IMG/VR virus record: IMGVR_UViG_3300038595_000016
Length of the DNA stretch: 39,387 nucleotides
Origin: a virus
Direction: 5' to 3' (one strand)
How positions within the stretch are numbered: position 1 is the first letter of the stretch; each line of letters starts with the position of its first letter. The notes beneath the pieces are model-generated. The model worked only from the letters and a program-made list of their open reading frames with translations. It had not been told where the DNA came from and made no database searches. This document shows positions 7,907-39,125 of the stretch, in pieces. The position numbers and the translations under genes were made by a program.

Positions 7907-7949
7907 ACTATACCCAATCCGAACCAAGTGCGCTGTGACCGACTTCACA
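7907..7949 (-). promoter_or_regulatory. Class II CRP-type promoter for the 7873 gene
   Basis: Perfect TGTGAccgactTCACA at 7934-7949, then exactly 21 nt, then TATAGT (plus-strand coordinates 7907-7912, read on the minus strand). No -35 element. Confidence 0.7.
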
Positions 7950-7973
7950 AAACAAAAAACCCGCTTTCGCGGG
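7950..7973 (-). terminator. Rho-independent terminator ending the 8716-8042 transcript
   Basis: CCCGC-gaaa-GCGGG (7973-7960 on the minus strand) followed by TTTTTTGTTTT, which runs into the palindrome. Confidence 0.7.
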
Positions 7974-8041
7974 CTGTGGGATTAGGTTATTTATTGCACT
8001 CAAATACACCGAAGAAAGATTTCCACTAAAAAAGAAAAAAA

Positions 8042-8716
8042 TCAATAAGGGTGGATAATATTACTGTCTAGAGCCTCCTTCCAGTTTAATAATGCCTGTT
8101 TAACTTCATCTCTATCCTGAATCATTGCAAGCTCATATGCTAACTCAGACTTTCTCTTTCTCCATGCTAGGTGGGCCTCAATCTCAGTTTCGAAATATCC
8201 AAGGTGCTCCATCTTTCCGGTTACTGGGTTGCAACACTTAGAGACAAACTTTCCATAAGGTTTGTACATGCTGGCTCCTATCATATACATACCTCTAGCT
8301 CTAAAATTATCAGTTGTAAATGAGTTGACCTTACGAGTAACAAATATACACCGGCTAGGTGAGTATGTTTTGTTTGGTGCGGATATTAGATCTTTATCGA
8401 TCTCATAATTACCTCCGTCTCTTGGGTAGTTTTTGTCAAACCAACCAGCAAAACATTGGTAGTCGTGCCATTCATCACATACTGAACAGCCTCTGTAGCT
8501 TGGTCTTCTTTCAATTTCAGGTTCGTGATAACACCTCTTAAGCATGTTCATCCATTTTACATACGCCTTGGTAAGTTTAGAGCCATCTCTAGTCTTATAT
8601 CGACCTCCTGAGTTGTATCCCAGCCCGTAAATCCTACCGACTACCTTTGCCTTTCTTTTGCCTGTGTTTTTTGACTCTGCACTTGTTGCTACAAACTTTT
8701 GCTTTTGCTGTCCCAT
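8042..8716 (-). CDS. Homing-endonuclease-like protein, paralog 1 (conserved W..M..RC core plus AP2-like C-terminal DNA-binding domain)
   Basis: AYVKWMNMLKRCYHE...YRGCSVCDEWHDYQCFAGWF...IDKDLISAPNKTYSPSRCIFVTRKVNS aligns with the ORFs at 19708 and 37149. C-terminal HLGYFETEIEAHLAWRK is AP2-like. Confidence 0.6.
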   Translation of the reverse strand: MGQQKQKFVATSAESKNTGKRKAKVVGRIYGLGYNSGGRYKTRDGSKLTKAYVKWMNMLKRCYHEPEIERRPSYRGCSVCDEWHDYQCFAGWFDKNYPRDGGNYEIDKDLISAPNKTYSPSRCIFVTRKVNSFTTDNFRARGMYMIGASMYKPYGKFVSKCCNPVTGKMEHLGYFETEIEAHLAWRKRKSELAYELAMIQDRDEVKQALLNWKEALDSNIIHPY

Positions 8717-8762
8717 AAAACAATTCTCCGCAAATTTCGCATTTCTTTTCAGTAATCGCCAT
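8634..8762 (-). CDS. Small zinc-ribbon-like ORF (42 aa) overlapping the start of 8042-8716 in another frame
   Basis: GAGG 8 nt upstream of ATG 8762. Translated by hand: MAITEKKCEICGELFYGTAKAKVCSNKCRVKKHRQKKGKGSR, with a C..C-N12-C...C pattern. Confidence 0.4.
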   Translation of the reverse strand: MAITEKKCEICGELFYGTAKAKVCSNKCRVKKHRQKKGKGSR

Positions 8763-8779
8763 TTCCTTACCTCTTAATA

Positions 8780-8808
8780 ATTGTAATGATTTATCGTTAC
8801 ATAGTCAA
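8780..8808 (-). promoter_or_regulatory. Sigma70-type promoter for the 8762/8716 genes
   Basis: On the minus strand: TTGACT (8808-8803), 17 nt, TACAAT (8785-8780). Confidence 0.6.
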
Positions 8809-8811
8809 CAG

Positions 8812-8845
8812 TAAAAAAGCGCAGCCGAAATTCCATAACTGCGCT
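8812..8845 (-). terminator. Rho-independent terminator after the 9162-8953 gene
   Basis: AGCGCAG (8845-8839) pairs with CTGCGCT (8824-8818), loop 14 nt, followed by TTTTTT. Confidence 0.65.
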
Positions 8846-8952
8846 CTCTTTGTGTCCACTGATTCTCACATCTGCCAAAGGGTAATTGCGCTTCTCAGCG
8901 TAAGTTCGCTTTCTGTGGCCTGTTCACACATGAAGCTGATTTAATAACCACC

Positions 8953-9162
8953 TTAGTAGTCTTTAGGTTGGACGTTTACCTTGTCGCCTTCATAAGCTCT
9001 CTTTATTTCGGCGTAGAATTTATCGTCGTGCTTGGTTTTTGTGCTTTTCACAATTTCACCAGCTAGGTAGAAAAACGCCCACTCGATAACTTTTTCGCTA
9101 GCAAATGACATTAACAGCTTGGTGCCAAATGCCAACATCGCTTTTATAAAAACTTGAATCAT
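8953..9162 (-). CDS. Small membrane protein, candidate holin
   Basis: 69 aa with two hydrophobic stretches (IQVFIKAMLAFGTKLLMSFA, VIEWAFFYLAGEIV) and a highly charged C-terminal tail. It is the next gene downstream of the endolysin. SD AGGAAGGG. Confidence 0.35.
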   Translation of the reverse strand: MIQVFIKAMLAFGTKLLMSFASEKVIEWAFFYLAGEIVKSTKTKHDDKFYAEIKRAYEGDKVNVQPKDY

Positions 9163-9225
9163 AATACCCTTCCTAAAAATGCGTATTGATTTGTCATTGG
9201 TATTTCTTTGGTAACTAATGCAATC

Positions 9226-9684
9226 TTAGATAAGATCACGATATACATCATCAATAGACTCTCCTTTAATTACTCGTGCGTGACGTTTTGCGCGGTTGGG
9301 TGAATCACTACGCGCCCATTTCGAATCTAGCGCCTCTGTAGCGGCTTTTTCCATATCGCCAACTGATAGGGCAGAGATCATCTTTTTGAAGCCTAGAAGA
9401 CCTTGCAAGCCTAACTGGTAGCACATTGATACGAGAATGTCCTGCACATCTTTGTGCTGGTCGATAAACCATGCGTACTGGCAAAGTTTTGCTTCTTCTT
9501 TCAGTGCGTGGGATTCAAGCCACAAACGCGCTACAGGCTCAGGGATTTCACAATCGAAGTGGTCAATATTGGCGTTTTTATCTGCCAGCTTAATTCCATA
9601 GCCAATAGTCGGATATCCAAGGGAATCTTTGTACGGCTTGGCTCGAAAACCCTCTTCGAATGCAATTACTTTTGTAAAACTCAT
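9226..9684 (-). CDS. Endolysin, glycoside hydrolase family 24 (T4/lambda-type lysozyme fold)
   Basis: N-terminal IAFEEGFRAKPYKDSLGYPTIGYGIKL matches the E-x8-D/C-x5-T lysozyme signature (EG.r..aY.D..G..TIGYG). Confidence 0.9.
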   Translation of the reverse strand: MSFTKVIAFEEGFRAKPYKDSLGYPTIGYGIKLADKNANIDHFDCEIPEPVARLWLESHALKEEAKLCQYAWFIDQHKDVQDILVSMCYQLGLQGLLGFKKMISALSVGDMEKAATEALDSKWARSDSPNRAKRHARVIKGESIDDVYRDLI

Positions 9685-9860
9685 TATTTGACCTTAATCA
9701 ATAAACGTTGCGAGCCTAAAAACAATGGCTCGATAGTTGAAACAAAGCCGCTGCTATACGGCAATTTAATCATAACACTTTCGTTATTCATCCGCATTCC
9801 GTCTACAATCTGCCCTTTCTTGTAGTCGTGATAATTGCGGCAGAACTGATACTTTGTCAT
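9684..9860 (-). CDS. Hypothetical 58-aa protein
   Basis: Hand-translated MTKYQFCRNYHDYKKGQIVDG...LIKVK. GGAGG lies 6 nt upstream. TAATG overlaps at both ends couple it to its neighbours. Confidence 0.6.
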   Translation of the reverse strand: MTKYQFCRNYHDYKKGQIVDGMRMNNESVMIKLPYSSGFVSTIEPLFLGSQRLLIKVK

Positions 9861-9955
9861 TACAAACCTCCAAAATACACGCCAGCGATAACGGCAAGGA
9901 ACCCTGCCAGGCTAAGTGCGGTTGTGATTGCTTTCATTGTTTGGTCAAAATTCAT
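9860..9955 (-). CDS. 31-aa single-pass membrane peptide in the lysis cluster
   Basis: MNFDQTMKAITTALSLAGFLAVIAGVYFGGL. ATGA overlap with the upstream gene and TAATG overlap with the downstream one. Confidence 0.5.
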   Translation of the reverse strand: MNFDQTMKAITTALSLAGFLAVIAGVYFGGL

Positions 9956-10521
9956 CTAAACACCTCTGATAATAGTTTGTTTCTGTCCAACGTTGCAGCT
10001 TCAGGTTGATACTTTGTTGCCTGTCTTTTATCGCCAATGCCCACAAGTTTAATCTCTCGGTTGGATTTCATGTTTCGCTTATGGATTATCAGTCCTAACT
10101 GTTCAATCTGATACATGTAATCGCTAACACCATTTCGACGGAGTCCTGTTAGTTCGTTAATTTCGCTATAAGTCAGGTATCTATCGCGATTATTGAACAA
10201 TACCGTGATTATGTCGAACTTAGTATTACCTAGAAATCTACAACGCCAGCGCAAATCCTCCCACTCAACGTTACTCTCTACAAAGTCATCATCGCAAATG
10301 TATTCCCTTTGATATACACCCTTAACAAGCTTGTAGAATATCTGAACGCCACTACCATTTTGCTTTGTCTTGATATGGATTTTTGCGCCTAGCTTTTTAG
10401 CGACGCGACGAAGTTTTGTTTGCGTTACATTTCGCGCAACGTTCAGCATTAGCGATAAGTCAACCGTTGAGTGATATCGCTTAAATAACTGTTCGTACTC
10501 TTTCATCCTTTGCAGTCCCAC
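9952..10521 (-). CDS. Winged-helix (MarR-like) DNA-binding protein, putative transcription regulator
   Basis: 189 aa. C-terminal half DIITVLFNNRDRYLTYSEINELTGLRRNGVSDYMYQIEQLGLIIHKR has a wHTH pattern. Confidence 0.55.
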   Translation of the reverse strand: MGLQRMKEYEQLFKRYHSTVDLSLMLNVARNVTQTKLRRVAKKLGAKIHIKTKQNGSGVQIFYKLVKGVYQREYICDDDFVESNVEWEDLRWRCRFLGNTKFDIITVLFNNRDRYLTYSEINELTGLRRNGVSDYMYQIEQLGLIIHKRNMKSNREIKLVGIGDKRQATKYQPEAATLDRNKLLSEVFR

Positions 10522-10688
10522 GGCTTAAATGATTGAGGGATATTTAAAACCCTCATTTCTTTCTGCACGGTCTTGTGGCAACACATGCATTCTTCGGCTA
10601 TTTGGTCATAGTTTCGAATGTGCGGGTTGTTAATAATAAACAGCCTCACCATGTGCGAATCGTAGCCGTAATCTTTTCTAGCGCCCAT
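10503..10688 (-). CDS. Small HTH-like protein (61 aa; start uncertain)
   Basis: ORF 10503-10808 overlaps the upstream ORF. ATG 10688 follows GGGAAAG. Contains NYDQIAEECMCCHKTVQKEMRVLNI. Confidence 0.45.
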   Translation of the reverse strand: MGARKDYGYDSHMVRLFIINNPHIRNYDQIAEECMCCHKTVQKEMRVLNIPQSFKPWDCKG

Positions 10689-10887
10689 TGCTTTCCCACA
10701 CAAACAGGTCATAGTTAAATTCAAGGTGCGAATATGATGCATCAATCTTTGTTCCCATAACCACGAAAGAGCCTTGTTCATCGTCCCACTGGAAACGAAC
10801 TGGAACAAGCCCGCTACTAATCGCTACAAACTGCTCGCAGATATTGCCGTTAACTGGCGGGTATTTGCTTGTGATTAGGTTAGACAT
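10678..10887 (-). CDS. Hypothetical protein (69 aa)
   Basis: ATG 10887 is preceded by GAGGTGAG and gives an 8-nt overlap with the upstream stop. Confidence 0.6.
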   Translation of the reverse strand: MSNLITSKYPPVNGNICEQFVAISSGLVPVRFQWDDEQGSFVVMGTKIDASYSHLEFNYDLFVWESNGR

Positions 10888-11179
10888 ACTCACCTCGTGC
10901 TTTTGATAGTAGTTGGTTGATTTGTTTTTTGAATCGTTGGCATTCATCATAATCAGCCATTTCTTCTAGTAATCCGTACAACTCCGGTGCCGCCGCGATT
11001 AGGTGGGCGTTGGCTTCAAGCTCCGGATTTGAGTCTTCACCCTCCATTTTATAAACCACCTCGGCAAAACAGTGGTGGATAGAGTCATCATAATCACGTT
11101 TAACGCTAATTGCCCAGCAATCATCATTCCAATTAGCGTCTTTTTCAATAAACCACTCACCTTTAGTAAAATTACACAT
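10880..11179 (-). CDS. Hypothetical phage protein with the NAHLIAAAPELY motif
   Basis: ATG 11179 lies 7 nt after GGGGAG. ANAHLIAAAPELYGLLEEM is a motif recurrent in small phage proteins of unknown function. Confidence 0.65.
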   Translation of the reverse strand: MCNFTKGEWFIEKDANWNDDCWAISVKRDYDDSIHHCFAEVVYKMEGEDSNPELEANAHLIAAAPELYGLLEEMADYDECQRFKKQINQLLSKARGEYV

Positions 11180-11357
11180 TAACATACTCCCCACTCTGAT
11201 TGTTATGGTTAACAAACTCGCTTGCTACGAAGTGGGCAAAGCCAGCGTTACGGCCTAGATGGTACTTAGGCGTGTACTCGGCTTTGTTTTCTACCTGTGA
11301 CCACTTCTTTTCTAACTTGGCTAGATTCGCCTCTTTAAATTCAATCAACTTGCTCAT
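11172..11357 (-). CDS. Hypothetical protein (61 aa), first gene of the 11357->8953 operon
   Basis: ORF track; an AAGGAAAAG SD-like purine run lies upstream of ATG 11357. Confidence 0.6.
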   Translation of the reverse strand: MSKLIEFKEANLAKLEKKWSQVENKAEYTPKYHLGRNAGFAHFVASEFVNHNNQSGEYVNV

Positions 11358-11389: not shown

Positions 11390-11432
11390 AATATACAAAA
11401 AGACCGCGCATCTGTATGTGATGGCGGTCACG
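11390..11432 (-). promoter_or_regulatory. Class II CRP-type promoter for the 11357 operon
   Basis: The minus strand reads cGTGAccgccaTCACA (11432-11417), then 21 nt, then TATATT (11395-11390). One mismatch in one half-site. Confidence 0.6.
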
Positions 11433-11450: not shown

Positions 11451-11474
11451 ATAAAAACCGCCCGTAGGCGGCTT
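11451..11474 (-). terminator. Rho-independent terminator after the SSB gene
   Basis: CCGCC-tacg-GGCGG followed by TTTTTATTT on the minus strand, 4 nt after the SSB stop codon. Confidence 0.7.
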
Positions 11475-11477
11475 ATA

Positions 11478-11831
11478 TTAAAATGGAATTGAGTCGTCAT
11501 AGTCCTGTGGCGGCTCGTTGTATTGCTGCTGTTGTTGTTGGTCCTGTTTCTGCTGTTGCTGATACTGACCCCAGTTCTGTTGTTGCGGCTGAGCCTGCTG
11601 TTGATCTTTCCAGAATACCTTAGCGTTACCAAGTATTGCGCCTTGCTGTCCAGCTTCGCGATCTTCTTTGCTAACTGCCTGGGTTATCATCCCACTATTT
11701 CCGAACTGGTCTAATTGATCAATATCAATGAAAACCTGAGCGTCGAGGTAGGTTCCTTTTTGACCTTTAAATAACTTTGATTTATCTATTTTTGTTACGT
11801 CAATCTTTAGCGTCACGCCTACTTTAGCCAT
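11478..11831 (-). CDS. ssb: Single-stranded DNA-binding protein (non-canonical N-terminal domain, poly-Q linker, acidic DDSIPF tip)
   Basis: Starts MAKVGVTLKIDV at ATG 11831. The linker is QQQAQPQQQNWGQYQQQQKQDQQQQQQ. The C-terminus DYDDSIPF matches the SSB partner-binding tip (DDDIPF). Lies in the recombination module. Confidence 0.65.
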   Translation of the reverse strand: MAKVGVTLKIDVTKIDKSKLFKGQKGTYLDAQVFIDIDQLDQFGNSGMITQAVSKEDREAGQQGAILGNAKVFWKDQQQAQPQQQNWGQYQQQQKQDQQQQQQYNEPPQDYDDSIPF

Positions 11832-12369
11832 TTTGTTTTGCCTCTTTTCTTGCTCCCCACTGGAAGCGCACTTGGTTGTTATTGTCTTTAGCTGCAAGGA
11901 ATGAGATTTTACCACCTGTAAACTCTGCATACCAACGCCACTCTTTTAGTTTAAAGTTCCAGGACGTTGTTTTTTTGCCTCCCCTGTCCTGTATTTCATC
12001 TGGTTTTAACTTAATGCTTATTTGTGGATAATCATAAAGCTCACGACCTATGCCCCAATTAAAGCAAGCCCGCTTAAAAGAATCACTAGCCAGCCCTTTT
12101 TGAGCTTCAGCGTTTGACTCTGTACCAGTATCCTCCTTGCTTACCCATTGCTTCTTTGACTCGTCCCATATGGAAACGATGCAGTTTTTATTGTCTCTGG
12201 TATGCTCTCGCTTCCAGCCAAAAGGTCCGACAACATCATCTAGGCGCTGCTGGTCAACCCTTGCGTTTTTGTAAGCTAGAATTGTGGCGTACCCGCCATT
12301 GTTTACTGACTGAACCCTAAACTCTATATCATTAATAGATAGCGGCTCTGAAAGTTTTTTAATGTCCAT
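11824..12369 (-). CDS. Rad52/Sak-like single-strand annealing protein
   Basis: ATG 12369 (MDIKKLSEPL...). The motif KGLASDSFKRACFNWGIGRELY resembles the Rad52-family signature (..KRAa..fGIGRyLY). Flanked by the exonuclease and SSB. Confidence 0.7.
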   Translation of the reverse strand: MDIKKLSEPLSINDIEFRVQSVNNGGYATILAYKNARVDQQRLDDVVGPFGWKREHTRDNKNCIVSIWDESKKQWVSKEDTGTESNAEAQKGLASDSFKRACFNWGIGRELYDYPQISIKLKPDEIQDRGGKKTTSWNFKLKEWRWYAEFTGGKISFLAAKDNNNQVRFQWGARKEAKQNG

Positions 12370-13270: not shown

Positions 13271-13339
13271 AGCATAACCATAAGCCGACTAACTTACTGT
13301 GACGAACCTCACAAAACAAAATACCCGTTGCGATATAAT
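13271..13339. promoter_or_regulatory. Divergent early control region: one palindrome serving back-to-back promoters
   Basis: Perfect TGTGAcgaaccTCACA at 13298-13313. The leftward -10 TATGCT (13276-13271) is 21 nt away and the rightward -10 TATAAT (13334-13339) is 20 nt away. Neither has a -35. Confidence 0.7.
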
Positions 13340-16187: not shown

Positions 16188-16216
16188 TTGACAATGACTA
16201 CAAATGATATTAATAT
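16188..16216 (+). promoter_or_regulatory. Sigma70-type promoter with consensus -35
   Basis: TTGACA (16188-16193), 17 nt, TAATAT (16211-16216). Confidence 0.6.
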
Positions 16217-19666: not shown

Positions 19667-19707
19667 TACATAATGCAATTGCAAATAATCTAATTTTGGA
19701 GTGTAAA

Positions 19708-20349
19708 ATGAAAGCTAAATATTCAGTTGGGGATAGAGTTAAAAATAGGCTTGGCGATTATATGGTAATCGAGTCTTATGTTGATAGGTTCAACATAAAA
19801 GTAAGATTCGAGAAAACTGGGTACACTAGGATGACATCATCTAGCCACCTAAGCTCTGGTCATGTTAGGGATCACATGTTGCCAAGCGTGTGTGGCGTTG
19901 GAATTTTGGGCGGTAGTTACTGCTCTGGAGGAAAGCCGAAGTCATACAAGGTTTGGCATTCGATGATATGTAGATGCTATGACGAGGGTAATAGTTACTA
20001 TCACCGGTACGGAGGGGTTGGGGTTTCCGTGTGTGATGATTGGCTTTTCTTTCCTAATTTCAAGTCGTGGTTTGATGATAACTATATTGATGGCATGCAA
20101 ATAGACAAAGATCTTTCTGGGTCTAAGGTTTACTCTCCAGAAACGTGTGTTTTTATATCAAGGACAGAAAACACTAAAGAGATGCTATCCAGAAGGAATC
20201 CAAAACCATTTAAAGTAAAAAAGGATGGGGTGATATACGAAGGTGATTGTAGAAAAGACTTTATAGATGCAAATGGGCTTACTCAGTCATCATTTAGCAG
20301 GCTCTTGTCTGGGAAAATAAAGTCACACAAGGGTTTTGTTTTGGCTTGA
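19708..20349 (+). CDS. Homing-endonuclease-like protein, paralog 2
   Basis: GGAG lies 7 nt before ATG 19708. SYKVWHSMICRCYDE...YGGVGVSVCDDWLFFPNFKSWF...IDKDLSGSKVYSPETCVFISRTENT, with a C-terminal ...GKIKSHKGF DNA-binding tail shared with paralog 3. Confidence 0.6.
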   Translation: MKAKYSVGDRVKNRLGDYMVIESYVDRFNIKVRFEKTGYTRMTSSSHLSSGHVRDHMLPSVCGVGILGGSYCSGGKPKSYKVWHSMICRCYDEGNSYYHRYGGVGVSVCDDWLFFPNFKSWFDDNYIDGMQIDKDLSGSKVYSPETCVFISRTENTKEMLSRRNPKPFKVKKDGVIYEGDCRKDFIDANGLTQSSFSRLLSGKIKSHKGFVLA

Positions 20350-20469: not shown

Positions 20470-20943
20470 ATGACGGGAAGACCAAAAGCGCTGGGTAAAT
20501 ACACGCAAGAAGAAGTAAGACAAAAAGTATTAGAGCTTGGCGCAATAAACAAGGCCGCTAAGTTTTACGGGGTAAGCGACAGAACCGTAAGCATCAAGAT
20601 AGGGAATTTTAATCATCGTGGAGTCAAGCCTGAGCACATTAAGGAAATTCGAGCTATGGCAAAGAGCCACACGAAAAAGAATATTGCACAGCTACTTGGG
20701 TACACGTGGAGACAGATTGACTGGGCAGCTAGGCAGAACGGCATAAAATTCTCAAACTCAAGAAAGCCAAGATGGAATAGTGAGTTGACATACTACGAGA
20801 TGCACAATATGGATTTAATCGTTAAGCAATACCCATCAATTGAGAAGTGTGCGGAGGAGCATGGCGTTTGCACGAGAACTATTGATAAGCACATTAAATT
20901 ATCAAGAGAAGCTAGGAAGTGTGAGGTTGGTCACGGCATTTAG
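20470..20943 (+). CDS. DNA-binding protein with three HTH-like repeats (candidate transcription regulator)
   Basis: INKAAKFYGVSDRTVSIKI, KKNIAQLLGYTWRQIDWAARQNG and SIEKCAEEHGVCTRTIDKHIKL. Confidence 0.55.
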   Translation: MTGRPKALGKYTQEEVRQKVLELGAINKAAKFYGVSDRTVSIKIGNFNHRGVKPEHIKEIRAMAKSHTKKNIAQLLGYTWRQIDWAARQNGIKFSNSRKPRWNSELTYYEMHNMDLIVKQYPSIEKCAEEHGVCTRTIDKHIKLSREARKCEVGHGI

Positions 20944-20990: not shown

Positions 20991-21137
20991 ATGGACGGCT
21001 TTATTGTGACAACGCTCAAGGAAGCAAAAGCTAACGGGAATCTTAGAGAGGAATCATTGCGCATGGCTGGATTGCTTGATATGGAATTCAACCAGTTTAT
21101 TGAAGAGTTGGATATAGCATGGATGTTCGAAGATTAA
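20991..21137 (+). CDS. Hypothetical 48-aa protein
   Basis: AGAGGG SD. Hand-translated MDGFIVTTLKEAKANGNLREESLRMAGLLDMEFNQFIEELDIAWMFED. Confidence 0.5.
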   Translation: MDGFIVTTLKEAKANGNLREESLRMAGLLDMEFNQFIEELDIAWMFED

Positions 21138-25319: not shown

Positions 25320-25335
25320 TGTGAGGTTGGTCACA
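25320..25335. promoter_or_regulatory. Perfect TGTGA-N6-TCACA palindrome 3 nt after the terL stop; no -10 at the usual 21-nt offset
   Basis: TGTGAggttggTCACA. The 18 nt AAGTGTGAGGTTGGTCAC are identical to 20917-20934. Confidence 0.5.
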
Positions 25336-25961: not shown

Positions 25962-26135
25962 ATGACCCCATCCCAACGAGCAAAGGAGCTAGGCTGTCGT
26001 AGCCTGGCTCAAGTTATCAAGTATTCAGAAGTACCAGAGCGCACGCTTCACGACTGGTTCAAAAATTACCCCAAGCGGTTTGATATGGCTTGTATTTACA
26101 CGCGAGAAGTTAAATATGGGAAGTTGGTTGTGTGA
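25962..26135 (+). CDS. 57-aa HTH-like protein
   Basis: Hand-translated MTPSQRAKELGCRSLAQVIKYSEVPERTLHDWFKNYPKRFDMACIYTREVKYGKLVV. Its TGA stop lies inside the 26131 palindrome. Confidence 0.5.
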   Translation: MTPSQRAKELGCRSLAQVIKYSEVPERTLHDWFKNYPKRFDMACIYTREVKYGKLVV

Positions 26136-26173
26136 CAACCATCACAGACAAAACAAACCACACCCTCTAAACT
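26131..26173 (+). promoter_or_regulatory. Class II CRP-type promoter for the 26205 cassette, nested in a terminator
   Basis: Perfect TGTGAcaaccaTCACA (26131-26146), 21 nt, TAAACT (26168-26173). The -10 is the loop of the terminator hairpin. Confidence 0.5.
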
Positions 26174-26204: not shown

Positions 26205-26795
26205 ATGAAAGTTGGTGACAAAGTTAAAGTTGATAAAATTGGCGGGTTTTACCCCACTTACAAGGAGTGGGCTGAGATTGTAGGGGCTAAAAGATGGACT
26301 AATAACAAGTACCCAGAAAGCATGGAGTTTGTTGTTGAGGCAATAGGCAATCACCTTACTGAGAGTATTACGCTCTACCTGTTGTCTAATGATGAGGGCG
26401 AATTTATCTTTGATAACATCCATAGCAATATTGCCACAGTTAAGCGCACACGCACCGAATACGAGAAGGTGACAGAGTCTATCTTTGGCTTGCGCGATGA
26501 GTTTGAGCGCGGGGAGTTGTATACTAAGAAATTCAACCAAGAGTGGCACCAAATAAAAACAGAGGAGCAACTTGGTAACTTACTATCAATGAACGACGAC
26601 CCAACCAAAAACGGAATTTACAGAAAAGTCGAAAGAGAGATTGATTGGCGTGTAGATGCTGATAGCTACTTTTTGAAAACGAAATATCTAGGGATTAACT
26701 GCACTATCGAAGAGGCAATTACACGTAGTGATTATTGCGATGAATTCCTCGAACTATGCCGCGTCGCCCTTCGTGCTAATGGGGAGATTGAGTGA
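26205..26795 (+). CDS. Hypothetical protein (196 aa)
   Basis: GGAG lies 9 nt before ATG 26205. No recognisable motif. Confidence 0.7.
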   Translation: MKVGDKVKVDKIGGFYPTYKEWAEIVGAKRWTNNKYPESMEFVVEAIGNHLTESITLYLLSNDEGEFIFDNIHSNIATVKRTRTEYEKVTESIFGLRDEFERGELYTKKFNQEWHQIKTEEQLGNLLSMNDDPTKNGIYRKVEREIDWRVDADSYFLKTKYLGINCTIEEAITRSDYCDEFLELCRVALRANGEIE

Positions 26796-26935
26796 TGAAA
26801 GTATACGCAAAAGATAAAGATGGAAAACTACTAGCCGGTACTGTGAAAAATTTCACACCAGAACTGTATAGTAAGATTCAGCAGGAAATGAGACAGCACG
26901 GCGCGGTATCAGCAGTACTAGTTTGCGTCAAGTAG
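26795..26935 (+). CDS. Hypothetical 46-aa protein
   Basis: TGATG overlap, with GGGGAG 8 nt upstream. MKVYAKDKDGKLLAGTVKNFTPELYSKIQQEMRQHGAVSAVLVCVK. Confidence 0.5.
   Translation: MKVYAKDKDGKLLAGTVKNFTPELYSKIQQEMRQHGAVSAVLVCVK
26842..26857. promoter_or_regulatory. Perfect intragenic TGTGA-N6-TCACA palindrome with AT-only spacer
   Basis: TGTGAaaaattTCACA, preceded by GGTACT. No -10 at a 21-nt offset on either strand. Confidence 0.4.
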
Positions 26936-28423: not shown

Positions 28424-28430
28424 AAAGAAA

Positions 28431-28450
28431 GGGCCAATTAAGGCCCTTTT
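28431..28450. terminator. Bidirectional terminator between the convergent portal and 28452 genes
   Basis: GGGCC-aattaa-GGCCC, flanked by an A-run upstream and a T-run downstream. Confidence 0.75.
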
Positions 28451-28451: not shown

Positions 28452-29120
28452 TTATTGTTTGCGGTAGCCGACGCTTTCAGCTAATTGAATGTAAACGCTC
28501 TGCCATTCATCGCGAAGCTCCGCCCATGTGTTTGGTGTGCCTGCAATGTCATGATTCATTTCTATACTACTCATTAAATCATAAATAGCCTTGCCGTTTT
28601 CAATTCGCTCACGCTCGGCTTTTTGTTCTGGCGTTTCTGGTTTGCGTAGCTCCTGATAATTCAAGTCGATAATCTCAAATTCAGAATGTTTGTAATCTCC
28701 ATTGTTTTGCACAACTACAGTTTTATCGTTATTTGCTACCACAACGCACGGAACCCAATATCCGCCACGCTTTCCTTTCCACTCACACTCGACTCCAACC
28801 GGCGGCAATCCATTACCGCACCAATCAACTTTTGATTTCAGCCCTAACCACTCATCAAGCTGGTCTAGGGTGATTTCTTGGGCGTCAATACCGTAATTAT
28901 CATTGTTGTCGTAAAGCACTGTAATATTATCGTCGTCAACTCCGAAATAATTGAAATGGGTATCATACGCATCTTGGTAGCTGTGTTTTCTGTTTGTGTT
29001 CACGATACATTCATCAGCAACCGCCCCAGCATCAACACACTTATCAAAAGCATCTTGCACCATTTGCGGCGTAATGTCGTCGGTGATGCGGATGTAGAAT
29101 GGTTTTACTTTATTTGTCAT
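28452..29120 (-). CDS. Hypothetical accessory protein (222 aa), reverse-oriented in the head module
   Basis: ORF track. Central DWCGNGLPPVGVECEWKGKRGGYWVPCVVVA suggests a small beta domain. No functional motif recognised. Confidence 0.75.
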   Translation of the reverse strand: MTNKVKPFYIRITDDITPQMVQDAFDKCVDAGAVADECIVNTNRKHSYQDAYDTHFNYFGVDDDNITVLYDNNDNYGIDAQEITLDQLDEWLGLKSKVDWCGNGLPPVGVECEWKGKRGGYWVPCVVVANNDKTVVVQNNGDYKHSEFEIIDLNYQELRKPETPEQKAERERIENGKAIYDLMSSIEMNHDIAGTPNTWAELRDEWQSVYIQLAESVGYRKQ

Positions 29121-29382
29121 TGTTTTGGTCCTTTAGTTGGTTTAGTAGCGACTCAGCGTTGCTGATAATGTGAATAATATCCTTTTTGCAGTTGTCTGGA
29201 TTTACAAGTCTTTCCAGTACCTCTCGCAACTTCGCATTCTCTTCGGTAAGGCGGTCGTGATTATCAAGTATCAGTGCGGCCTGCCTCGCTTCTTCTGGCG
29301 TGTCGCCGTCAATCATGAGTGTTGCCTCGCCATTAATCCAAACGCAATCATCAACCGGAGATATCCGCATGTTGTATTTCAC
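29110..29382 (-). CDS. Hypothetical accessory protein (about 90 aa), coiled-coil C-terminus
   Basis: Track ORF 29110-29388 (TTG). GTG 29382 lies 7 nt after GAGGA. 11-nt overlap with the downstream gene. Confidence 0.65.
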   Translation of the reverse strand: MKYNMRISPVDDCVWINGEATLMIDGDTPEEARQAALILDNHDRLTEENAKLREVLERLVNPDNCKKDIIHIISNAESLLNQLKDQNNDK

Positions 29383-29412
29383 ATCCAAGTCCTCATCGTT
29401 TGTGTTTCATGT

Positions 29413-29455
29413 ATAATAACCCCATCATTCGAATTTATCTGTGAGGCCCGTCACA
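29413..29455 (-). promoter_or_regulatory. Class II CRP-type promoter for the reverse 29382-28452 cassette
   Basis: Perfect TGTGAggcccgTCACA (29440-29455), 21 nt, TATTAT (29418-29413 on the minus strand). The site also covers the SD region of the + strand gene starting at 29457. Confidence 0.65.
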
Positions 29456-30529: not shown

Positions 30530-30549
30530 GGGAGCTTCGGCTCCTTTTT
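30530..30549 (+). terminator. Rho-independent terminator
   Basis: GGGAGC-ttcg-GCTCC followed by TTTTTCTTT. Confidence 0.8.
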
Positions 30550-30554: not shown

Positions 30555-30597
30555 TGTGACCATTATCACAACATTGCCACATCAGCTAGGGTATAGT
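30555..30597 (+). promoter_or_regulatory. Class II CRP-type promoter for the 30627-31265 cassette
   Basis: Perfect TGTGAccattaTCACA (30555-30570), 21 nt, TATAGT (30592-30597). GGAGG SD before ATG 30627. Confidence 0.7.
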
Positions 30598-30626: not shown

Positions 30627-30941
30627 ATGAAAAACAACAAAGTACGCATGAACATTTCACGCGAAATGCACGAATGGTTTACCGCTATTGATGGGAAGAC
30701 TAATGATGAGAGAATGAGGCGAGTTATTGAAATAAATGACGACTACAAAGCCTTGTTAGTCAGAAGCAATAAATTGGAAAAAGCGCTACAAGAGTCTCGC
30801 AAGGTTAATCGCGAGTGGTTCGGAAAGATGATGATGTATCGTGCGAATAATTCCATCCTTAAAAGCCTGTTTGTGTCGTCAGTGGCAGCATCAATCATTT
30901 CTGTTGGCTATCTAGCCTATGCGCAAGGGTGGTTTTTATGA
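30627..30941 (+). CDS. Hypothetical tail-anchored membrane protein (104 aa)
   Basis: Soluble coiled-coil N-part and a C-terminal LFVSSVAASIISVGYLAYAQGWF TM segment. Confidence 0.7.
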   Translation: MKNNKVRMNISREMHEWFTAIDGKTNDERMRRVIEINDDYKALLVRSNKLEKALQESRKVNREWFGKMMMYRANNSILKSLFVSSVAASIISVGYLAYAQGWFL

Positions 30942-31278: not shown

Positions 31279-31282
31279 TTAT

Positions 31283-31310
31283 TTGATATGCGTCACAGTT
31301 TTGCTATAAT
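31283..31310 (+). promoter_or_regulatory. Near-consensus sigma70 promoter with no ORF downstream
   Basis: TTGATA (31283-31288), 16 nt, TATAAT (31305-31310). A TTTGA-N6-TCACA near-palindrome (31282-31297) overlaps the -35 and spacer. Confidence 0.65.
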
Positions 31311-31316
31311 TGGGTT

Positions 31317-31437
31317 GTTGATTGGTGTGGTAGCCGATAGACAAAGATAGGGTTTAGTCAGACTTATTGAGAACAAAAGCTTTCATCATTACGCCTTTGT
31401 TACTACCACCTCAGTAAGTCCGCCTAAGCCCTTTTTT
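31317..31437 (+). ncRNA. Candidate ~120-nt phage sRNA (about 33-nt 5' tail, long imperfect hairpin, U6)
   Basis: 31350-31371 pairs with 31410-31431 (20 of 22 pairs, counted by hand) and 31372-31380 pairs with 31393-31401 (8 of 9). The GGG/CCC clamp is followed by TTTTTT at 31432-31437. Stops occur in all frames. Confidence 0.45.
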
Positions 31438-31635
31438 ATTGCCTTTCACACCCTCATATCAACCGCTTTCTAGCGGGCTTTGCACAGCGTTACCAAACCC
31501 GAACAATTTAACTATATGATGCTAAGCAATACGACTTTTGAGCCGAGGAAAAAGCAGGTTTCTAAGTGGTGATTATCGGCACGAAAAATAACGAATTGGG
31601 TCACTCCAAGTTTTTAGCCTAGTAAGTTAAACGTT

Positions 31636-31721
31636 ATGTGTCACACGAGCGACAACTCTATACTGTTCTGCATATTGTGATTGTTTAGACTACATCAAAA
31701 GGGCTTATTAATGTGTCACAC
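31636..31721. repeat. Two copies of ATGTGTCACAC (31636-31646 and 31711-31721), 75-bp period, inside the ORF-free island
   Basis: Read directly. The core TGTG-T-CACA is an inverted repeat. Each copy is followed 9-10 nt later by CTCTA(T/A). Confidence 0.8.
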
Positions 31722-31767
31722 CACTTAAAGGCTCTAATGACCACTATTCTTTAAATTTAGCCTACAG

Positions 31768-31811
31768 TTGCCTGTCAATGTTAAATGCCTTAAAATGTGA
31801 GCTATGACACA
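31768..31811 (+). promoter_or_regulatory. Sigma70-type promoter for the scaffold/capsid operon, with a palindrome copy abutting the -10
   Basis: TTGCCT (31768-31773), 17 nt, TAAAAT (31791-31796). TGTGAgctatgaCACA (31796-31811, one mismatch) starts at the last base of the -10. Confidence 0.5.
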
Positions 31812-31849
31812 GATTCGCGTTGATGATGTGGGAAAATGAGAGGCAACAA

Positions 31850-34120: not shown

Positions 34121-34141
34121 TATACTGTGACCATTGTCTCA
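34121..34141 (+). promoter_or_regulatory. Extended -10 (TGtTATACT) abutted by a degenerate palindrome copy
   Basis: TATACT at 34121-34126 and TGTGAccattgTCtCA at 34126-34141. It shares TGTGACCATT with the 30555 site. Confidence 0.4.
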
Positions 34142-35057: not shown

Positions 35058-35085
35058 GAAAAGCCCCTAATGGGGCTTGGCTTTG
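35058..35085. terminator. Bidirectional terminator between convergent genes
   Basis: GCCCC-taat-GGGGC (35063-35076), with an A-run before and T-rich sequence after. Confidence 0.7.
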
Positions 35086-35097: not shown

Positions 35098-35541
35098 TCA
35101 AGCATCAATAGTGTGTTGCGCACCAATCCCTGATATAAGTTTGCTCAGCTCGGTTATATATTCGACTTTGCACCACCCCTCAATTTCGCAGATCATTAGG
35201 TCGCATAAAATATCATTCAGCAGTTTTTCCTTAAACTTTTGTCGTGCAAGCTCATTAACAGTTCTGGTATAAACCGCATCAATAACAACGGGCTCGCTCT
35301 TTGCGTGATCGTCTTTTTTGGCAATCTGAACTTTTGGCACATCACTTAGCAACCGTTTCTGTTGCGACTGAGTCCTTACAAGGATTTGCTTTCCACCTTT
35401 AAGCAGACTGCCATTTATTGCGAACTCATACCCGTTAAGTGGAGACCCACAAGATTTATCCATTCTGTAGCCTTCTGGCAAAAAATCATAAAGCGGATAT
35501 CCTTTGTAATTGTTCATTCCGTATTCATATGGCATTTTCAT
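35098..35541 (-). CDS. Hypothetical accessory protein (145-147 aa), reverse-oriented in the connector module
   Basis: ORF track. ATG 35541 or 35535 (the latter has better SD spacing). No recognisable motif. Confidence 0.75.
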   Translation of the reverse strand: MKMPYEYGMNNYKGYPLYDFLPEGYRMDKSCGSPLNGYEFAINGSLLKGGKQILVRTQSQQKRLLSDVPKVQIAKKDDHAKSEPVVIDAVYTRTVNELARQKFKEKLLNDILCDLMICEIEGWCKVEYITELSKLISGIGAQHTIDA

Positions 35542-35571: not shown

Positions 35572-35614
35572 ACTATAACCTCATTAAATCGGTTATACTG
35601 TGACGAACTTCACA
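35572..35614 (-). promoter_or_regulatory. Class II CRP-type promoter for the reverse 35541 gene
   Basis: Perfect, extended palindrome ACTGTGAcgaactTCACAGT (site 35599-35614), 21 nt, TATAGT (35577-35572 on the minus strand). Confidence 0.7.
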
Positions 35615-36442: not shown

Positions 36443-36470
36443 AAAAGCCCCGAAGTGGGGCTTTTGTTTT
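36443..36470. terminator. Bidirectional terminator
   Basis: GCCCC-gaagt-GGGGC (36447-36461) followed by TTTTGTTTT, with an A-run upstream. Confidence 0.75.
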
Positions 36471-37149
36471 ATTGTGGCAGTGTCCACCCCTTGTATGACT
36501 TTAGCCCTCCACAAGCAAGCATTGACATTCCGCTTCTGTTTATGCCGTTTTCTAGGCAGTATTTTTTTAGATTTTCCACTTCAACTTTTTCTCCCTCTGG
36601 GTTTATGAATGTATAGACTTTTCTTTGCGCCACAGCATTGTTCTCACTAAGCGTAAGAAAGCAACAAGCGTCTGGCCCATAAACCTTGTTACCCTTAACA
36701 ATCATATCTTTATCTAGGTGATACTCATTGCCGTCTTTTGGATAGTTTTCATAGAACCATCTTGCAAAATTCTGGAAGTTATGCCACTCAGGGCAAACTG
36801 TACACCCTTTGTAGGTTGGTTTGTTTTCTTGATATGCTTCTGAATAACACCTTTCGAGCATCAAGTTCCATCTGCTGTACGCTAGTGTGTTTTTGCCTTT
36901 GTGCGATGGCTGGAATTCACCATCTCCAATAAAACCAACGCCCTTAACTCTAGGGTTTAGCTTGTCAGTAACCGAGCCGATCCTTATGTGGCTTGCTTGA
37001 GCCTTTGTCTTGTAGCCTGTCGCCGTGAACAGGACGTCAACATCGGTTGCCCTGTTGTACCTCTCAATAACAAGCTCACAGCCGTCGTTCATTACGTGCT
37101 TGGTGCCGGCCATCATGTTGTCCGCAGGTCTAACCTTTCTCATATCCAC
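36469..37149 (-). CDS. Homing-endonuclease-like protein, paralog 3, reverse-oriented between tail genes
   Basis: AYSRWNLMLERCYSE...YKGCTVCPEWHNFQNFARWF...LDKDMIVKGNKVYGPDACCFLTLSENN aligns with 8042 and 19708. The N-terminal domain and C-terminal GGLKSYKGW tail are shared with paralog 2. Confidence 0.6.
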   Translation of the reverse strand: MDMRKVRPADNMMAGTKHVMNDGCELVIERYNRATDVDVLFTATGYKTKAQASHIRIGSVTDKLNPRVKGVGFIGDGEFQPSHKGKNTLAYSRWNLMLERCYSEAYQENKPTYKGCTVCPEWHNFQNFARWFYENYPKDGNEYHLDKDMIVKGNKVYGPDACCFLTLSENNAVAQRKVYTFINPEGEKVEVENLKKYCLENGINRSGMSMLACGGLKSYKGWTLPQ

Positions 37150-37228: not shown

Positions 37229-37264
37229 CTTCATGTCATACTTAAACCTATAGGAGAGTGACTT

Positions 37265-37735
37265 ATGGCACTTGGTGATGAATCATCAATCTACAGCTCG
37301 ATCGGTACGACTTTAAGCGTATCAGCAACAACGCCAGCAACCTATGATGATACGGGTTTCGCTGCGCTTACATTCACTGAGGTTGGCTTGGTTGGTTCAA
37401 TCAGCTCATTCGGTGGTTCAACTGAAGTTAGTACGTTTAACGTCCTTAAATCAGGCAACACCGTCAAGCGCAAAGGCTTTACCGATTTCGGCACAATCAC
37501 AATCGGCATGGCTCGTGTATCTGATGATGACGGTCAGGTGTTGCTAAAGTCTGGCTTTGACGGTGCAGATAAAGGCAAGGTATTTAGCTATAAGCTAGAA
37601 CACCCTGCTGGCACTGGCCTGACTCAATACGGTACTTGCATTGTGACCAGTTACACAACTGACCCTCAAGCAATCGTACAGGCAGAAACATCGCTTGAGC
37701 TTGATAACGCAGTAATTGACGTTGTAACACCTTAA
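37265..37735 (+). CDS. Major tail (tube) protein
   Basis: 156 aa, Ser/Thr/Gly-rich and beta-rich. AGGAGAG SD. Followed by a strong terminator and then the chaperone pair and tape measure. Confidence 0.75.
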   Translation: MALGDESSIYSSIGTTLSVSATTPATYDDTGFAALTFTEVGLVGSISSFGGSTEVSTFNVLKSGNTVKRKGFTDFGTITIGMARVSDDDGQVLLKSGFDGADKGKVFSYKLEHPAGTGLTQYGTCIVTSYTTDPQAIVQAETSLELDNAVIDVVTP

Positions 37736-37748
37736 TTTCATGCGTCCT

Positions 37749-37779
37749 GCGCCTCTCATTTTGCGGGGCGCATTTTTTT
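37749..37779 (+). terminator. Rho-independent terminator after the major tail gene
   Basis: GCGCCTC-tcattttgc-GGGGCGC (one G-U pair) followed by A and T7. Confidence 0.75.
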
Positions 37780-37805
37780 CATTATTTGATTAAGAGAGGA
37801 ATCAA

Positions 37806-38288
37806 ATGACTTTTAACGTAGTTAACATGAAGCATCGTGAAGCACCTGATTTGTGGCTTCACATCAAAGACGCTGACGGCAACGAGATGTACGCAGACGA
37901 TAAAAATAAAAAACCTGTGCGCATTAAGTTCAAATCTATCCATGGTGACGTATTCCGCAAAGCATTTATGAAGATGAACGTGCGCCTGTCTCGCCTAAAA
38001 GAGGGCAAGCAGAAAGAATACGAAGAGCTTGCAAAAGGTGAGAGCGAGCTAACGCTAGAGCAAGTTGAAACCGAAGTAATGAATGCATTCATGCAAGCTG
38101 AAGACTTGGCAATTGATTTCATTGTTGAGATGGCGATCGATTGGGAAGGTTTCTTTAATGAAGACAATGAGCCTTTAGAGTTTAACGTTGACTACCTTCG
38201 CTTTGTTATCTCGCAGGTAGAAAACTACCACGTACTGCACCAAGTTCGAGAGGCATTTAAGGATAAAGAGGCTTTTACTATCGCGTAG
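37806..38288 (+). CDS. Tail assembly chaperone (gpG-like)
   Basis: Acidic 160-aa protein between the major tail and tape measure genes. AGAGAGGAA SD. Confidence 0.7.
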   Translation: MTFNVVNMKHREAPDLWLHIKDADGNEMYADDKNKKPVRIKFKSIHGDVFRKAFMKMNVRLSRLKEGKQKEYEELAKGESELTLEQVETEVMNAFMQAEDLAIDFIVEMAIDWEGFFNEDNEPLEFNVDYLRFVISQVENYHVLHQVREAFKDKEAFTIA

Positions 38289-38728
38289 CTGATAGCTGTT
38301 TGCTATACGCTGCGCATATTGGATGGCTAAACTCATCCGTTAAAGTTAGCGCTGGCAGGGATAAAAAGGAAAGCAAAACAAAACTCGAGTATTTCGGCTC
38401 GCATTCATTAATTGCCAAATTGCCAGACTTGGAAAAAGCATCATACATCGCCGAGCACTGGAATGATTGCGGGAAAGTAAGCTCTAACGGCTTTGGCATT
38501 AAGCAGCTAGATTGGCAAGAGGTGGAAAGCTACAGGAATCTAAACGGGTTGTCTGAATGGGAAGCTTTGATTGTTCATGCTATGTCACGAATGTACGTGT
38601 TAGCAAAAAACATGTTTGACGATGTGATGTGCGAATGTCCGTACCGATTTGAAGATAAACCAATGCTTGAGCTTCAATTGCTATCTGTGAATCCAATTGA
38701 AAGCACGAAAATAAATAAAGCCCCTTAG
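38267..38728 (+). CDS. gpT-like extension in the -1 frame of the chaperone gene (no SD, no in-frame ATG near its 5' end)
   Basis: The -1 frame is open from 38267. The zero frame stops at 38286-38288. The only U-run in the 22-nt overlap is GCU UUU ACU (38271-38279). Confidence 0.5.
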   Translation, partial: RGFYYRVADSCLLYAAHIGWLNSSVKVSAGRDKKESKTKLEYFGSHSLIAKLPDLEKASYIAEHWNDCGKVSSNGFGIKQLDWQEVESYRNLNGLSEWEALIVHAMSRMYVLAKNMFDDVMCECPYRFEDKPMLELQLLSVNPIESTKINKAP

Positions 38729-38746
38729 TTGGGGCTTTGTGTTTTT
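38719..38746. terminator. Bidirectional terminator containing the stop codons of both convergent genes
   Basis: AGCCCC-ttagtt-GGGGCT followed by TTGTGTTTTT, with an A/T-rich run upstream. Confidence 0.75.
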
Positions 38747-39051
38747 ATCAATTCCAAAATCTCACCGTCACACATAAAGTGGTGCGCTGTAGACCATTTA
38801 TACTCTGAGTGCGGCAAAAGATACTCAACTACGGATGATGTGTTACAAGAAGCTAAGCCACCATTTAACCAATGTAAACATTCTTTTTTGTACCGCGGTA
38901 GGCAGAGGAAATAATCAAACTCATCCTGAATTGGCAGTTGGCTGGTTTCACACCATGGATTGTCGATGTCGTAGCTATCTCTACAAAAAACCACCAAATC
39001 CATGTTATCCGCTTTAGCTTTAATCATCTCAGCATGCTTATGTACTGTCAT
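38725..39051 (-). CDS. Hypothetical accessory protein (108 aa), paralog of 7403-7873, inserted between tail chaperone and tape measure genes
   Basis: MTVHKHAEMIKAKADNMDLVVF...YFLCLPRYKKECLHWLNGG aligns with the 7873 protein. Confidence 0.8.
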   Translation of the reverse strand: MTVHKHAEMIKAKADNMDLVVFCRDSYDIDNPWCETSQLPIQDEFDYFLCLPRYKKECLHWLNGGLASCNTSSVVEYLLPHSEYKWSTAHHFMCDGEILELIKTQSPN

Positions 39052-39082
39052 CGTTTAATCCCGTCTAGTTAATCACCAAAAT

Positions 39083-39125
39083 ATAATAACAACCCGTGAT
39101 AGGTTATACTGTGAGCACAGTCACA
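39083..39125 (-). promoter_or_regulatory. Class II CRP-type promoter for the reverse 39051 gene
   Basis: Perfect TGTGAgcacagTCACA (39110-39125), 21 nt, TATTAT (39088-39083 on the minus strand). Confidence 0.7.

Follow-up and report, generated by a model that had tools for sequence, protein, structure and literature searches.

Class II promoters activated by CRP, the receptor protein for cyclic AMP (cAMP), such as galP1, the synthetic CC(-41.5) promoter and those of the Vibrio cholerae regulon (PMC6050953), combine a core site centred around -41.5 with a good -10 hexamer and no -35 element. In V. cholerae, the consensus TGTGA-N6-TCACA has been established by chromatin immunoprecipitation sequencing (ChIP-seq) and footprinting, and -41.5 is cited as an activating position (PMC6050953). 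Among phages, a report on coliphage T1 describes a single CRP-controlled phage promoter, that of the pir gene, through which host cAMP-CRP feeds into a siphophage decision (PMC6737242). Here, we analyse a palindrome of the same consensus that recurs along a viral DNA of 39,387 nucleotides, IMG/VR record IMGVR_UViG_3300038595_000016 (the whole stretch is called the window hereafter). Its promoters resemble the chromosomal class II promoters in core, predicted centre, -10 hexamer and lack of a -35, and we propose, with a probability of about 0.7 and on the basis of sequence comparisons, that the palindromes are consensus host CRP sites, around ten of which would serve as class II activator sites. 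Whereas in T1, as far as the abstract of that report shows (PMC6737242), one regulatory gene is concerned, in the window some ten transcription units carry the site, among them those of recombination and ninG, a lysis-containing operon and accessory cassettes.

Megablast of the 39.4-kb window (42.9% G+C) returned Vibrio siphophages of the phiHSIC / ValSw3-3 / pYD38-B / P23 type, whose reported hosts are Vibrio species. Since phiHSIC-type genomes measure 37-40 kb, the window appears to be close to a complete phiHSIC/ValSw3-3-type genome. TGTGA-N6-TCACA occurs in it in nine perfect copies, against 0.03 expected from dinucleotide shuffles (maximum 1); all of them start where a sequence-only reading of this DNA had placed them (7934, 13298, 25320, 26131, 26842, 29440, 30555, 35599 and 39110). 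When one mismatch is allowed, the count rises to 16, where 1.6 would be expected, and the one-mismatch copies include those at 11417, 20920, 31796, 34126, 17133, 31282 and 37642. The first four of these had been described as lying in contexts equivalent to those of the perfect copies; they are all present, but at 31796 and 34126 the window lacks a -10 at the 21-nt distance, and neither is a promoter context there. The same motif was looked for in related phage genomes, and each of nine relatives (portal at least 75% identical) carries 7-11 perfect sites at syntenic places. Per genome, the density is about one site per 3-4 kb.

What singles out these palindromes is their distance from a -10 hexamer. 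When all sites with at most one mismatch were pooled in both orientations from seven genomes (the window and six relatives; 226 oriented sites), a TAnnnT hexamer was found at exactly 21 nt from the site in 67, whereas every other spacing between 10 and 31 nt gave 0-15, mostly 4-8. Ten promoter-like units in the window have this arrangement, with 21 nt between site and hexamer and once 20 nt, at the rightward ninG promoter. The ten hexamers named in the sequence-only reading are indeed all present at the spacing and on the strand given there, and no TTGACA-like hexamer lies 16-18 nt upstream of the -10 at any of the ten. Provided that transcription starts 7 nt after the hexamer, a distance of 21 nt from TCACA to the -10 puts the site centre at -41.5, in agreement with the class II geometry claimed earlier. 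At this predicted start, six of the ten promoters have an A and nine have a purine, and 20-35 nt beyond each unit come a Shine-Dalgarno sequence and a start codon. The 44 distinct perfect 16-mers, whose core positions are fixed by definition, all differ from one another in the N6 spacer. Constant half-sites, spacers that all differ and a fixed distance to the -10 together indicate that selection acts on a pair of half-sites recognised by a symmetric dimer. Three other explanations of the sequence were discarded: the right half-site xTCACA cannot be a -35, because a 21-nt spacer is too long for sigma-70; a LexA (SOS) box, CTGT-N8-ACAG, does not fit sites that read (C)TGT-N10-ACA(G) with an asymmetric C/G flank; and a P2 Ogr-type dyad fails on spacing.

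The sites also score as CRP sites. A weight matrix was built from 25 V. cholerae CRP ChIP-seq sites among the best of the published set (PMC6050953 Table 1); the weakest real V. cholerae site was the cut-off and mononucleotide shuffles were the control. A CRP matrix scan against shuffled sequence had been put forward in the sequence-only reading, and it shows enrichment, with 19 matches at or above the cut-off against 4.4 +/- 2.0 in the shuffles. The nine perfect sites together with 11417, 20920, 31282 and 34126 score 10.5-16.9, and the V. cholerae sites bound in vivo range from 10.1 to 19.5; the one-mismatch sites 31796 and 37642 fall below the cut-off. The enrichment is alike in the phiHSIC lineage and in a second lineage, that of phages 1.291.O and 1.047.O, and it is not seen in three unrelated or distant Vibrio phages, pYD21-A, 1.176.O and 1.206.O.

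This second lineage came to light when IMG/VR was scanned with TGTGA-N6-TCACA-N21-TATAGT. The scan returned phiHSIC-like contigs and also contigs with several units but few or no homologues of the window's proteins. Contig L042 belongs with the Vibrio cyclitrophicus phages 1.291.O and 1.047.O, whose portal is 21.5% identical to that of the window. These two phages hold 15 and 13 sites (at most one mismatch), and TAnnnT stands at 21 nt in 6 and 7 cases respectively, against 0-3 at other spacings. A third lineage, represented by the metagenomic contigs L037, L031, L044 and L023, has a portal about 26% identical to the window's and the same promoters; megablast of L037, and of the unrelated contig L045 described below, against isolated phages gave no match.

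Could a phage-encoded protein read these sites? A tblastn search with E. coli CRP in the window and four relatives gave no convincing homologue, only noise in tape-measure genes. The sequence-only reading had offered two helix-turn-helix (HTH) proteins of the window as alternative binders, and neither can be retained, because each is absent from several motif-bearing genomes. The 189-aa winged HTH (wHTH) protein (9952-10521) is present in ValSw3-3, phiHSIC, pYD38-B and P23 and has no homologue in K2, 2E1, 1.198.B, 1.135.O, 1.291.O or 1.047.O; the double-HTH protein (20470-20943), whose distribution is complementary, is missing from ValSw3-3, phiHSIC, pYD38-B and the second lineage. Eight small proteins occur in every phiHSIC-lineage genome (9684-9860, 10678-10950, 11172-11357, 21284-21493, 22042-22284, 22281-22493, 30627-30941 and 30929-31123) and are lacking in the motif-less 1.176.O, 1.206.O and pYD21-A. 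Comparison with Pfam, PHROG and PDB linked none of the eight to a DNA-binding fold; the 80-aa product of 22042-22284 was considered as an HTH protein, which is unsupported, its only weak PDB match being an antifreeze/SAF-type domain. Profiles of the eight and of both HTH proteins, run against all reading frames of the second lineage, found nothing specific: the sole profile detected in both of its phages, a 64-aa family, occurs in motif-less phages too. Conversely, of the proteins of 1.291.O or 1.047.O, just the portal and the head-morphogenesis protein recur in each of the nine phiHSIC-type genomes tested, and two motif-less phages have both. Thus, among the genomes compared, no protein family runs through every motif-bearing member of the two lineages while being missing from the motif-less phages. 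Because motif and spacing recur in three divergent lineages without a shared regulator-like protein, a host factor is far more economical; a phage-encoded one would require that unrelated proteins converged on the same 10-base consensus, the same spacing and the same promoter position. The earlier preference for host cAMP-CRP therefore finds support in three lineages without a common regulator, in the lack of a CRP homologue in the five phage genomes searched and in scores within the V. cholerae in vivo range.

Several observations weigh against host CRP and keep us from a firmer statement. The ten core positions are invariant at nearly every site, while sites of host factors are normally degenerate; of the V. 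cholerae ChIP sites compared (PMC6050953), only one has a perfect core. T follows TGTGA in 34% of the phage sites and in 68% of the V. cholerae sites (Fisher p = 2e-4), with C at 32% in the phage sites, where pyrimidines are still favoured, and the spacer G+C content is 50% against 33%. Because of this departure in flank and spacer composition, most phage sites score under the median chromosomal site, and for the same reason our confidence in CRP is held at the value given above. A perfect core may relax selection on the secondary positions of the phage sites. As for the CTGTGA flank, it is not symmetric and a G follows TCACA on the promoter side, so it looks related to the promoter and not part of the protein site. 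In addition, the conserved sites 25320 and 26842 do not have the 21-nt geometry and do not lie at -41.5, and the motif is lineage-specific: it is missing from the Vibrio siphophages pYD21-A, 1.176.O and 1.206.O, whose hosts also have CRP. 1.176.O and 1.206.O have related structural genes (portal 24-32% identical to the window's); pYD21-A is unrelated. Finally, within the phiHSIC lineage the motif co-occurs with the eight small conserved proteins, so that a phage factor is conceivable when this lineage is taken by itself, and none of its genomes lacks both HTH proteins.

Most of these points are also what one would cite for a phage-encoded dimeric DNA-binding protein that activates from about -41.5 and that, made from a CRP-independent early promoter, would then turn on the palindrome promoters as its set of middle promoters. 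Near-invariant half-sites resemble the operators of a dedicated phage regulator, and the sigma-70-type promoter at 16188 could supply it early. We regard this explanation as unlikely, given the convergence it needs, the eight core proteins that match no DNA-binding fold and the failure of the profile and family comparisons across lineages to bring up a candidate. Known phage activators, such as lambda CI at PRM, Mu Mor and C and P2 Ogr, are similar in that a dimer site replaces the -35 before a sigma-70 -10 and many promoters share one palindrome. The P2-type dyad is TGT-N12-ACA near -55, and Mu sites are centred near -43.5. Each of these systems requires a phage gene that accompanies its sites, and none such was found in the motif-bearing phages compared.

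The comparative argument points to a host factor without naming it, and the different spacer and flank preferences could reflect another host protein, be it a different member of the CRP/FNR family or an unrelated regulator with an overlapping recognition sequence. We consider this improbable. To our knowledge, no other Vibrio regulator has a TGTGA-N6-TCACA site. This sequence is specifically the CRP consensus, the FNR-type site being TTGAT-N4-ATCAA and the competence-type CRP-S site TGCGA-N6-TCGCA (PMC1635313), and CRP ChIP-seq in V. cholerae gives this very motif (PMC6050953).

The layout of the genome helps to place the individual sites. Tail genes occupy 67-6909. A leftward arm, from about 13087 to 6918, encodes an exonuclease, a Rad52-like annealing protein, small conserved genes, the wHTH protein, a lysozyme, an HNH-like gene and an accessory unit. 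The rightward arm runs from ninG (13361) through antirepressor-like, primase/helicase and small genes to the terminase, portal, head and tail genes, and its structural block is broken up by several reverse-oriented cassettes.

At the point where the arms diverge, one perfect site (13298..13313) lies between two divergent promoters, an arrangement also found in ValSw3-3, K2 and 2E1. On the minus strand, the -10 TATGCT (13271-13276) would start transcription at about 13264, towards the exonuclease, the Rad52-like annealing protein and 11930..11478; on the plus strand, TATAAT (13334-13339), at 20 nt, has a predicted start at about 13346 and leads to ninG (ATG 13361) and onward. The ability of one CRP site to serve two divergent promoters is known in E. 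coli. Further along the leftward arm, the one-mismatch site CGTGACCGCCATCACA (11417..11432, minus strand; -10 TATATT 11390-11395, predicted start about 11383) heads the operon 11357..8953, which encodes a conserved 61-aa protein, the wHTH protein and the lysozyme. Site and promoter are nearly identical in all relatives, and a terminator (11455-11474, minus strand) stands upstream. The arm closes with a perfect site, TGTGAAGTCGGTCACA in minus-strand reading (7934..7949; -10 TATAGT 7907-7912, predicted start about 7900), which is syntenic in ValSw3-3, phiHSIC, pYD38-B and P23. Its promoter is predicted to drive 7879..7403 and probably 7250..6918, and it has a terminator directly upstream (7958-7975, minus strand). 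Terminator-like hairpins thus lie directly upstream of the 7934 and 11417 sites, as they do at 30555, and hairpins and sites together break the leftward arm up into three units that each begin with terminator, site and promoter.

In the rightward arm, the one-mismatch site TGTGAGGTTGGTCACG (20920..20935, plus strand; -10 TATCAT 20957-20962, predicted start about 20969) lies inside the 3' end of the open reading frame (ORF) 20470-20943 and leads to 20991..21137 and a run of small conserved genes. The perfect site 26131..26146 (plus strand) stands ahead of 26205..26795, and that at 30555..30570 (plus strand; -10 TATAGT 30592-30597, predicted start about 30604), directly after a terminator (30530-30545, plus strand), leads to 30627..30941. 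Three perfect sites on the minus strand each open a reverse cassette that ends at a terminator. The first (29440..29455; -10 TATTAT 29413-29418, predicted start about 29406) precedes 29388..29110 and 29120..28452, with the terminator at 28428-28449 (minus strand). The second (35599..35614; -10 TATAGT 35572-35577, predicted start about 35565) precedes 35541..35098 (terminator 35061-35078, minus strand), and the third (39110..39125; -10 TATTAT 39083-39088, predicted start about 39076) precedes 39051..38725 (terminator 38717-38738, minus strand). The three cassettes thus span 29388..28452, 35541..35098 and 39051..38725.

On the plus strand of the 29440 site, the ATG of the head-morphogenesis gene (29457) lies one base past the site (TCACAaATG), and the only Shine-Dalgarno-like sequence of this gene, GAGG, falls within the spacer of the site, so that a protein on the DNA site and the translation signals of the mRNA share the same bases. 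Homologues of this gene in ValSw3-3 and P23 are annotated as NAD-asparagine ribosyltransferase-like.

A site may also decay together with what it controls. The one-mismatch site TGAGACAATGGTCACA (34126..34141, minus strand) has no -10 in the window. Its homologue in phiHSIC, pYD38-B, P23, 2E1 and ValSw3-3 is perfect and, with TATAGT placed at 21 nt, drives a reverse cassette absent from the window. Judged from this comparison, the decay of site and -10 where the cassette has been lost is decay with loss of function.

In some units the promoter appears to lie within a terminator. Of the 112 promoter-type sites, 20 have their -10, still at exactly 21 nt, within a hairpin loop closed by a stem of at least 6 bp; the stems are often G+C-rich and followed by a T-run, many are terminator-like, and they recur in the three lineages. 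Examples are found at 26131-26181 in the window and at 24578 in P23 (L004), 1380 in K2 (L005), 5601 in 2E1 (L007), 6238 in L037 and 2134 in 1.047.O (L051). At 26131 the hexamer TAAACT (26168-26173) occupies the loop of the hairpin 26160-26181, followed by a T-run. The hexamer listed there in the sequence-only reading is present, as are the others of that list, but it lies in a terminator-like loop, and we regard the unit as a putative promoter embedded in a terminator. More generally, a loop-borne -10 looks like a promoter set within an intrinsic terminator, at which upstream transcripts would stop and activator-dependent ones would start in the 3' arm of the hairpin.

The perfect site at 25320..25335 has no -10 at 21 nt; it begins 2 nt past the stop codon of the terminase large subunit and is followed by a bidirectional terminator (25345-25362). 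Its homologue in K2 (1380-1395) has TATTAT at 21 nt, inside a terminator loop. The two genomes stay similar through the 3' end of the terminase gene and all of the site, whose spacer, GGTTGG, is the same in both, and no further than the site's 3' edge, which suggests that sites and cassettes act as junctions for module exchange. Likewise, the promoter and leader 'TCACAgtataac...ggtTATAGTaattgcaa' recurs, nearly identical, before different cassette genes. One might then take the palindrome as a signal whose main role lies in structure or recombination, either as a short hairpin or as a junction at which cassettes are exchanged, with the promoter as a secondary neighbour. Its position at module boundaries, the shared leaders and conserved sites without a -10, such as 25320, speak for it. 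We find this highly improbable: the fixed 21-nt distance (67 against about 5) and the absent -35 would be left unexplained, a 5-bp stem with a 6-nt loop makes a weak hairpin, and exchange at conserved regulatory cassettes can follow merely from their sequence conservation.

In phages of the T4 type, Arbiol and colleagues reportedly described in 2010 mobile promoter/stem-loop cassettes, called PeSL, that carry ordinary early sigma-70 promoters. As in PeSL, compact terminator and promoter units here flank variable accessory genes and seem to coincide with recombination junctions. Unlike in PeSL, the promoter would need an activator, and its -10 is carried in the hairpin loop in 20 of 112 cases.

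A second geometry was also noted, in which the palindrome ends 7-9 nt before the -10 and its left half-site (GTGACA, TTGATA or GTGAAA) stands 16-18 nt from the hexamer, like a -35. Such sites occur at 31282-31310 and 26842-26872 in the window, at 12291 in P23, 19076 in K2 and 33559 in 2E1, and these promoters lie ahead of portal, scaffold or tail genes. At the perfect site TGTGAAAAATTTCACA (26842..26857, plus strand), ahead of the portal gene at 26957, TATAGT is only 9 nt downstream; GTGAAA lies 18 nt from the hexamer, in -35-like fashion, and the site overlaps the core promoter. The one-mismatch site TTTGATATGCGTCACA (31282..31310, plus strand) overlaps the -35 and spacer of a near-consensus sigma-70 promoter, TTGATA-16-TGnTATAAT. 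It was rejected as a class II unit, since half of the site is the -35 TTGATA of that promoter. A protein bound in this second geometry would cover part of the core promoter, and its effect might be repression instead of activation.

That promoter (31283-31310) is the best of the sigma-70 type in the window. The following 31311-31820, about 500 nt up to the scaffold gene, holds no plus-strand ORF of 31 aa or more and contains two copies of ATGTGTCACAC. Within it, 31463-31755 (293 nt) is 77% identical to an ORF-free stretch beside two tRNA genes in Vibrio phage 1.176.O, despite the proteins of 1.176.O being only 25-44% identical to the window's. Rfam gave no match for 31311-31820, and its folding energy is no better than that of shuffles (z = 0.06).

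The window shows no enrichment of ordinary -35/-10 promoters (32 and 21, against 41.8 and 27.2 expected), and near-consensus ones are few, at 16188, 25374, 31283 and 37200. The sequence-only reading had early operons depend on the palindrome. This does not extend to every early gene, as a sigma-70-type promoter, TTGACA-17-TAATAT (16188-16216), precedes the replication genes. Because replication and structural genes also have such promoters (16188, 25374, 31283, 37200), the phage is probably not wholly CRP-dependent.

How would host CRP act at these units? A CRP dimer on TGTGA-N6-TCACA, centred at about -41.5, would replace the missing -35 contact and recruit the host sigma-70 RNA polymerase to a good -10, of the TATAGT or TATTAT type, and transcription would begin about 7 nt downstream of it. 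The T-rich terminator tail upstream of many sites is presumably where the C-terminal domain of the alpha subunit would sit at a class II promoter. In many units the predicted order is intrinsic terminator, CRP site, -10 and ribosome-binding site. Such cassettes would split the leftward arm into three operons (recombination, lysis-containing and accessory), one site would start both the rightward ninG operon and the recombination operon, and each reverse-oriented accessory cassette of the structural block would get its own activator-dependent promoter and terminator. Under CRP control would then come recombination, ninG, the 61-aa/wHTH/lysozyme operon, the small genes before the terminase, the 30627 unit and all reverse accessory cassettes. 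Much of the phage's gene expression would thereby probably be tied to the nutritional state of the host.

Other elements and genes were seen in passing. Three unrelated metagenomic phage contigs with 38-39% G+C and no isolate match, L045 (IMGVR_UViG_3300042521_001055), L012 and L036, also carry perfect TGTGA-N6-TCACA copies, nine in 13 kb in L045 and two in each of the others. At most of these sites, what follows after 6-8 nt is a second conserved element, ATGTCCGATTTG, in place of a -10 at 21 nt; the same palindrome is used here in another composite element. In L022 (30-176) and L030 (5939-6085), four TGTGAA-N4-TTCACA-type palindromes about 40-48 bp apart form a tandem array with AACATCG repeats interspersed; the array looks iteron-like and is possibly an origin, unlike the promoters.

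Two families of window genes appear to contain paralogues. The genes 7403-7879 and 38725-39051, both on the minus strand, are each the first after a palindrome promoter (7934 and 39110). Their products have similar N-termini (KHKHSPMIKAKVDNMDLVVF and HKHAEMIKAKADNMDLVVF) and so look like paralogues; both match the same loci in ValSw3-3, phiHSIC, pYD38-B, P23 and 1.047.O. Three further ORFs, 8042-8716 (minus strand), 19696-20349 (plus strand) and 36469-37149 (minus strand), share 41-56% identity with one and the same stretch that opens the phiHSIC record, where ORF1 carries the annotation HNH endonuclease, and they also match the same loci in ValSw3-3, 1.291.O and 1.047.O. In view of these shared loci they look like paralogues, and their place at three different module boundaries suggests mobile genes of the homing-endonuclease kind; none of the three has a Pfam match.

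Class II CRP promoters are textbook matter and single CRP-controlled phage genes are known. As far as is known, what would be new is a phage group with most of its regulated promoters on consensus CRP cassettes of terminator, site and promoter. No account of the motif was found in the papers on ValSw3-3 and vB_VnaS-L3 or in full-text literature searches, a coverage outside which the 2005 phiHSIC genome paper falls. In comparison with chromosomal class II CRP promoters, the phage sites lie in a lytic or pseudotemperate phage at one per 3-4 kb and nearly all have a perfect core; in comparison with chromosomal CRP sites, their spacers are richer in G+C, T after TGTGA is rarer and many units are fused to an upstream terminator.

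PhiHSIC is a classical marine model of pseudolysogeny. In this respect, the observations can be joined into a broader picture that we put forward tentatively, as a possibility rather than as our expectation. At least three divergent lineages of marine Vibrio siphophages would have dropped the -35 at most of their non-structural promoters in favour of host CRP sites of consensus strength, so that infection would be gated by cAMP, which would explain nutrient-dependent pseudolysogeny. The 10-15 sites on each replicating copy could titrate CRP from host genes, and portable, insulated cassettes, some with a loop-borne -10, would drive the shuffling of accessory genes.

If host CRP does read these sites, expression of the units, and probably phage productivity, would follow the cAMP and carbon status of the host. 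The terminator-site-promoter units could also serve as synthetic-biology parts in Vibrio natriegens. As ValSw3-3 and vB_VnaS-L3 belong to the group, the efficacy of phage therapy in aquaculture could depend on carbon sources. It would clearly exemplify a phage whose regulated promoters are for the most part built on a single global regulator of the host and not on factors of its own. A common type of marine Vibrio phage would then read the carbon status of its host through promoter architecture, and why marine phage production and 'pseudolysogeny' follow nutrient supply would become testable with simple tools.

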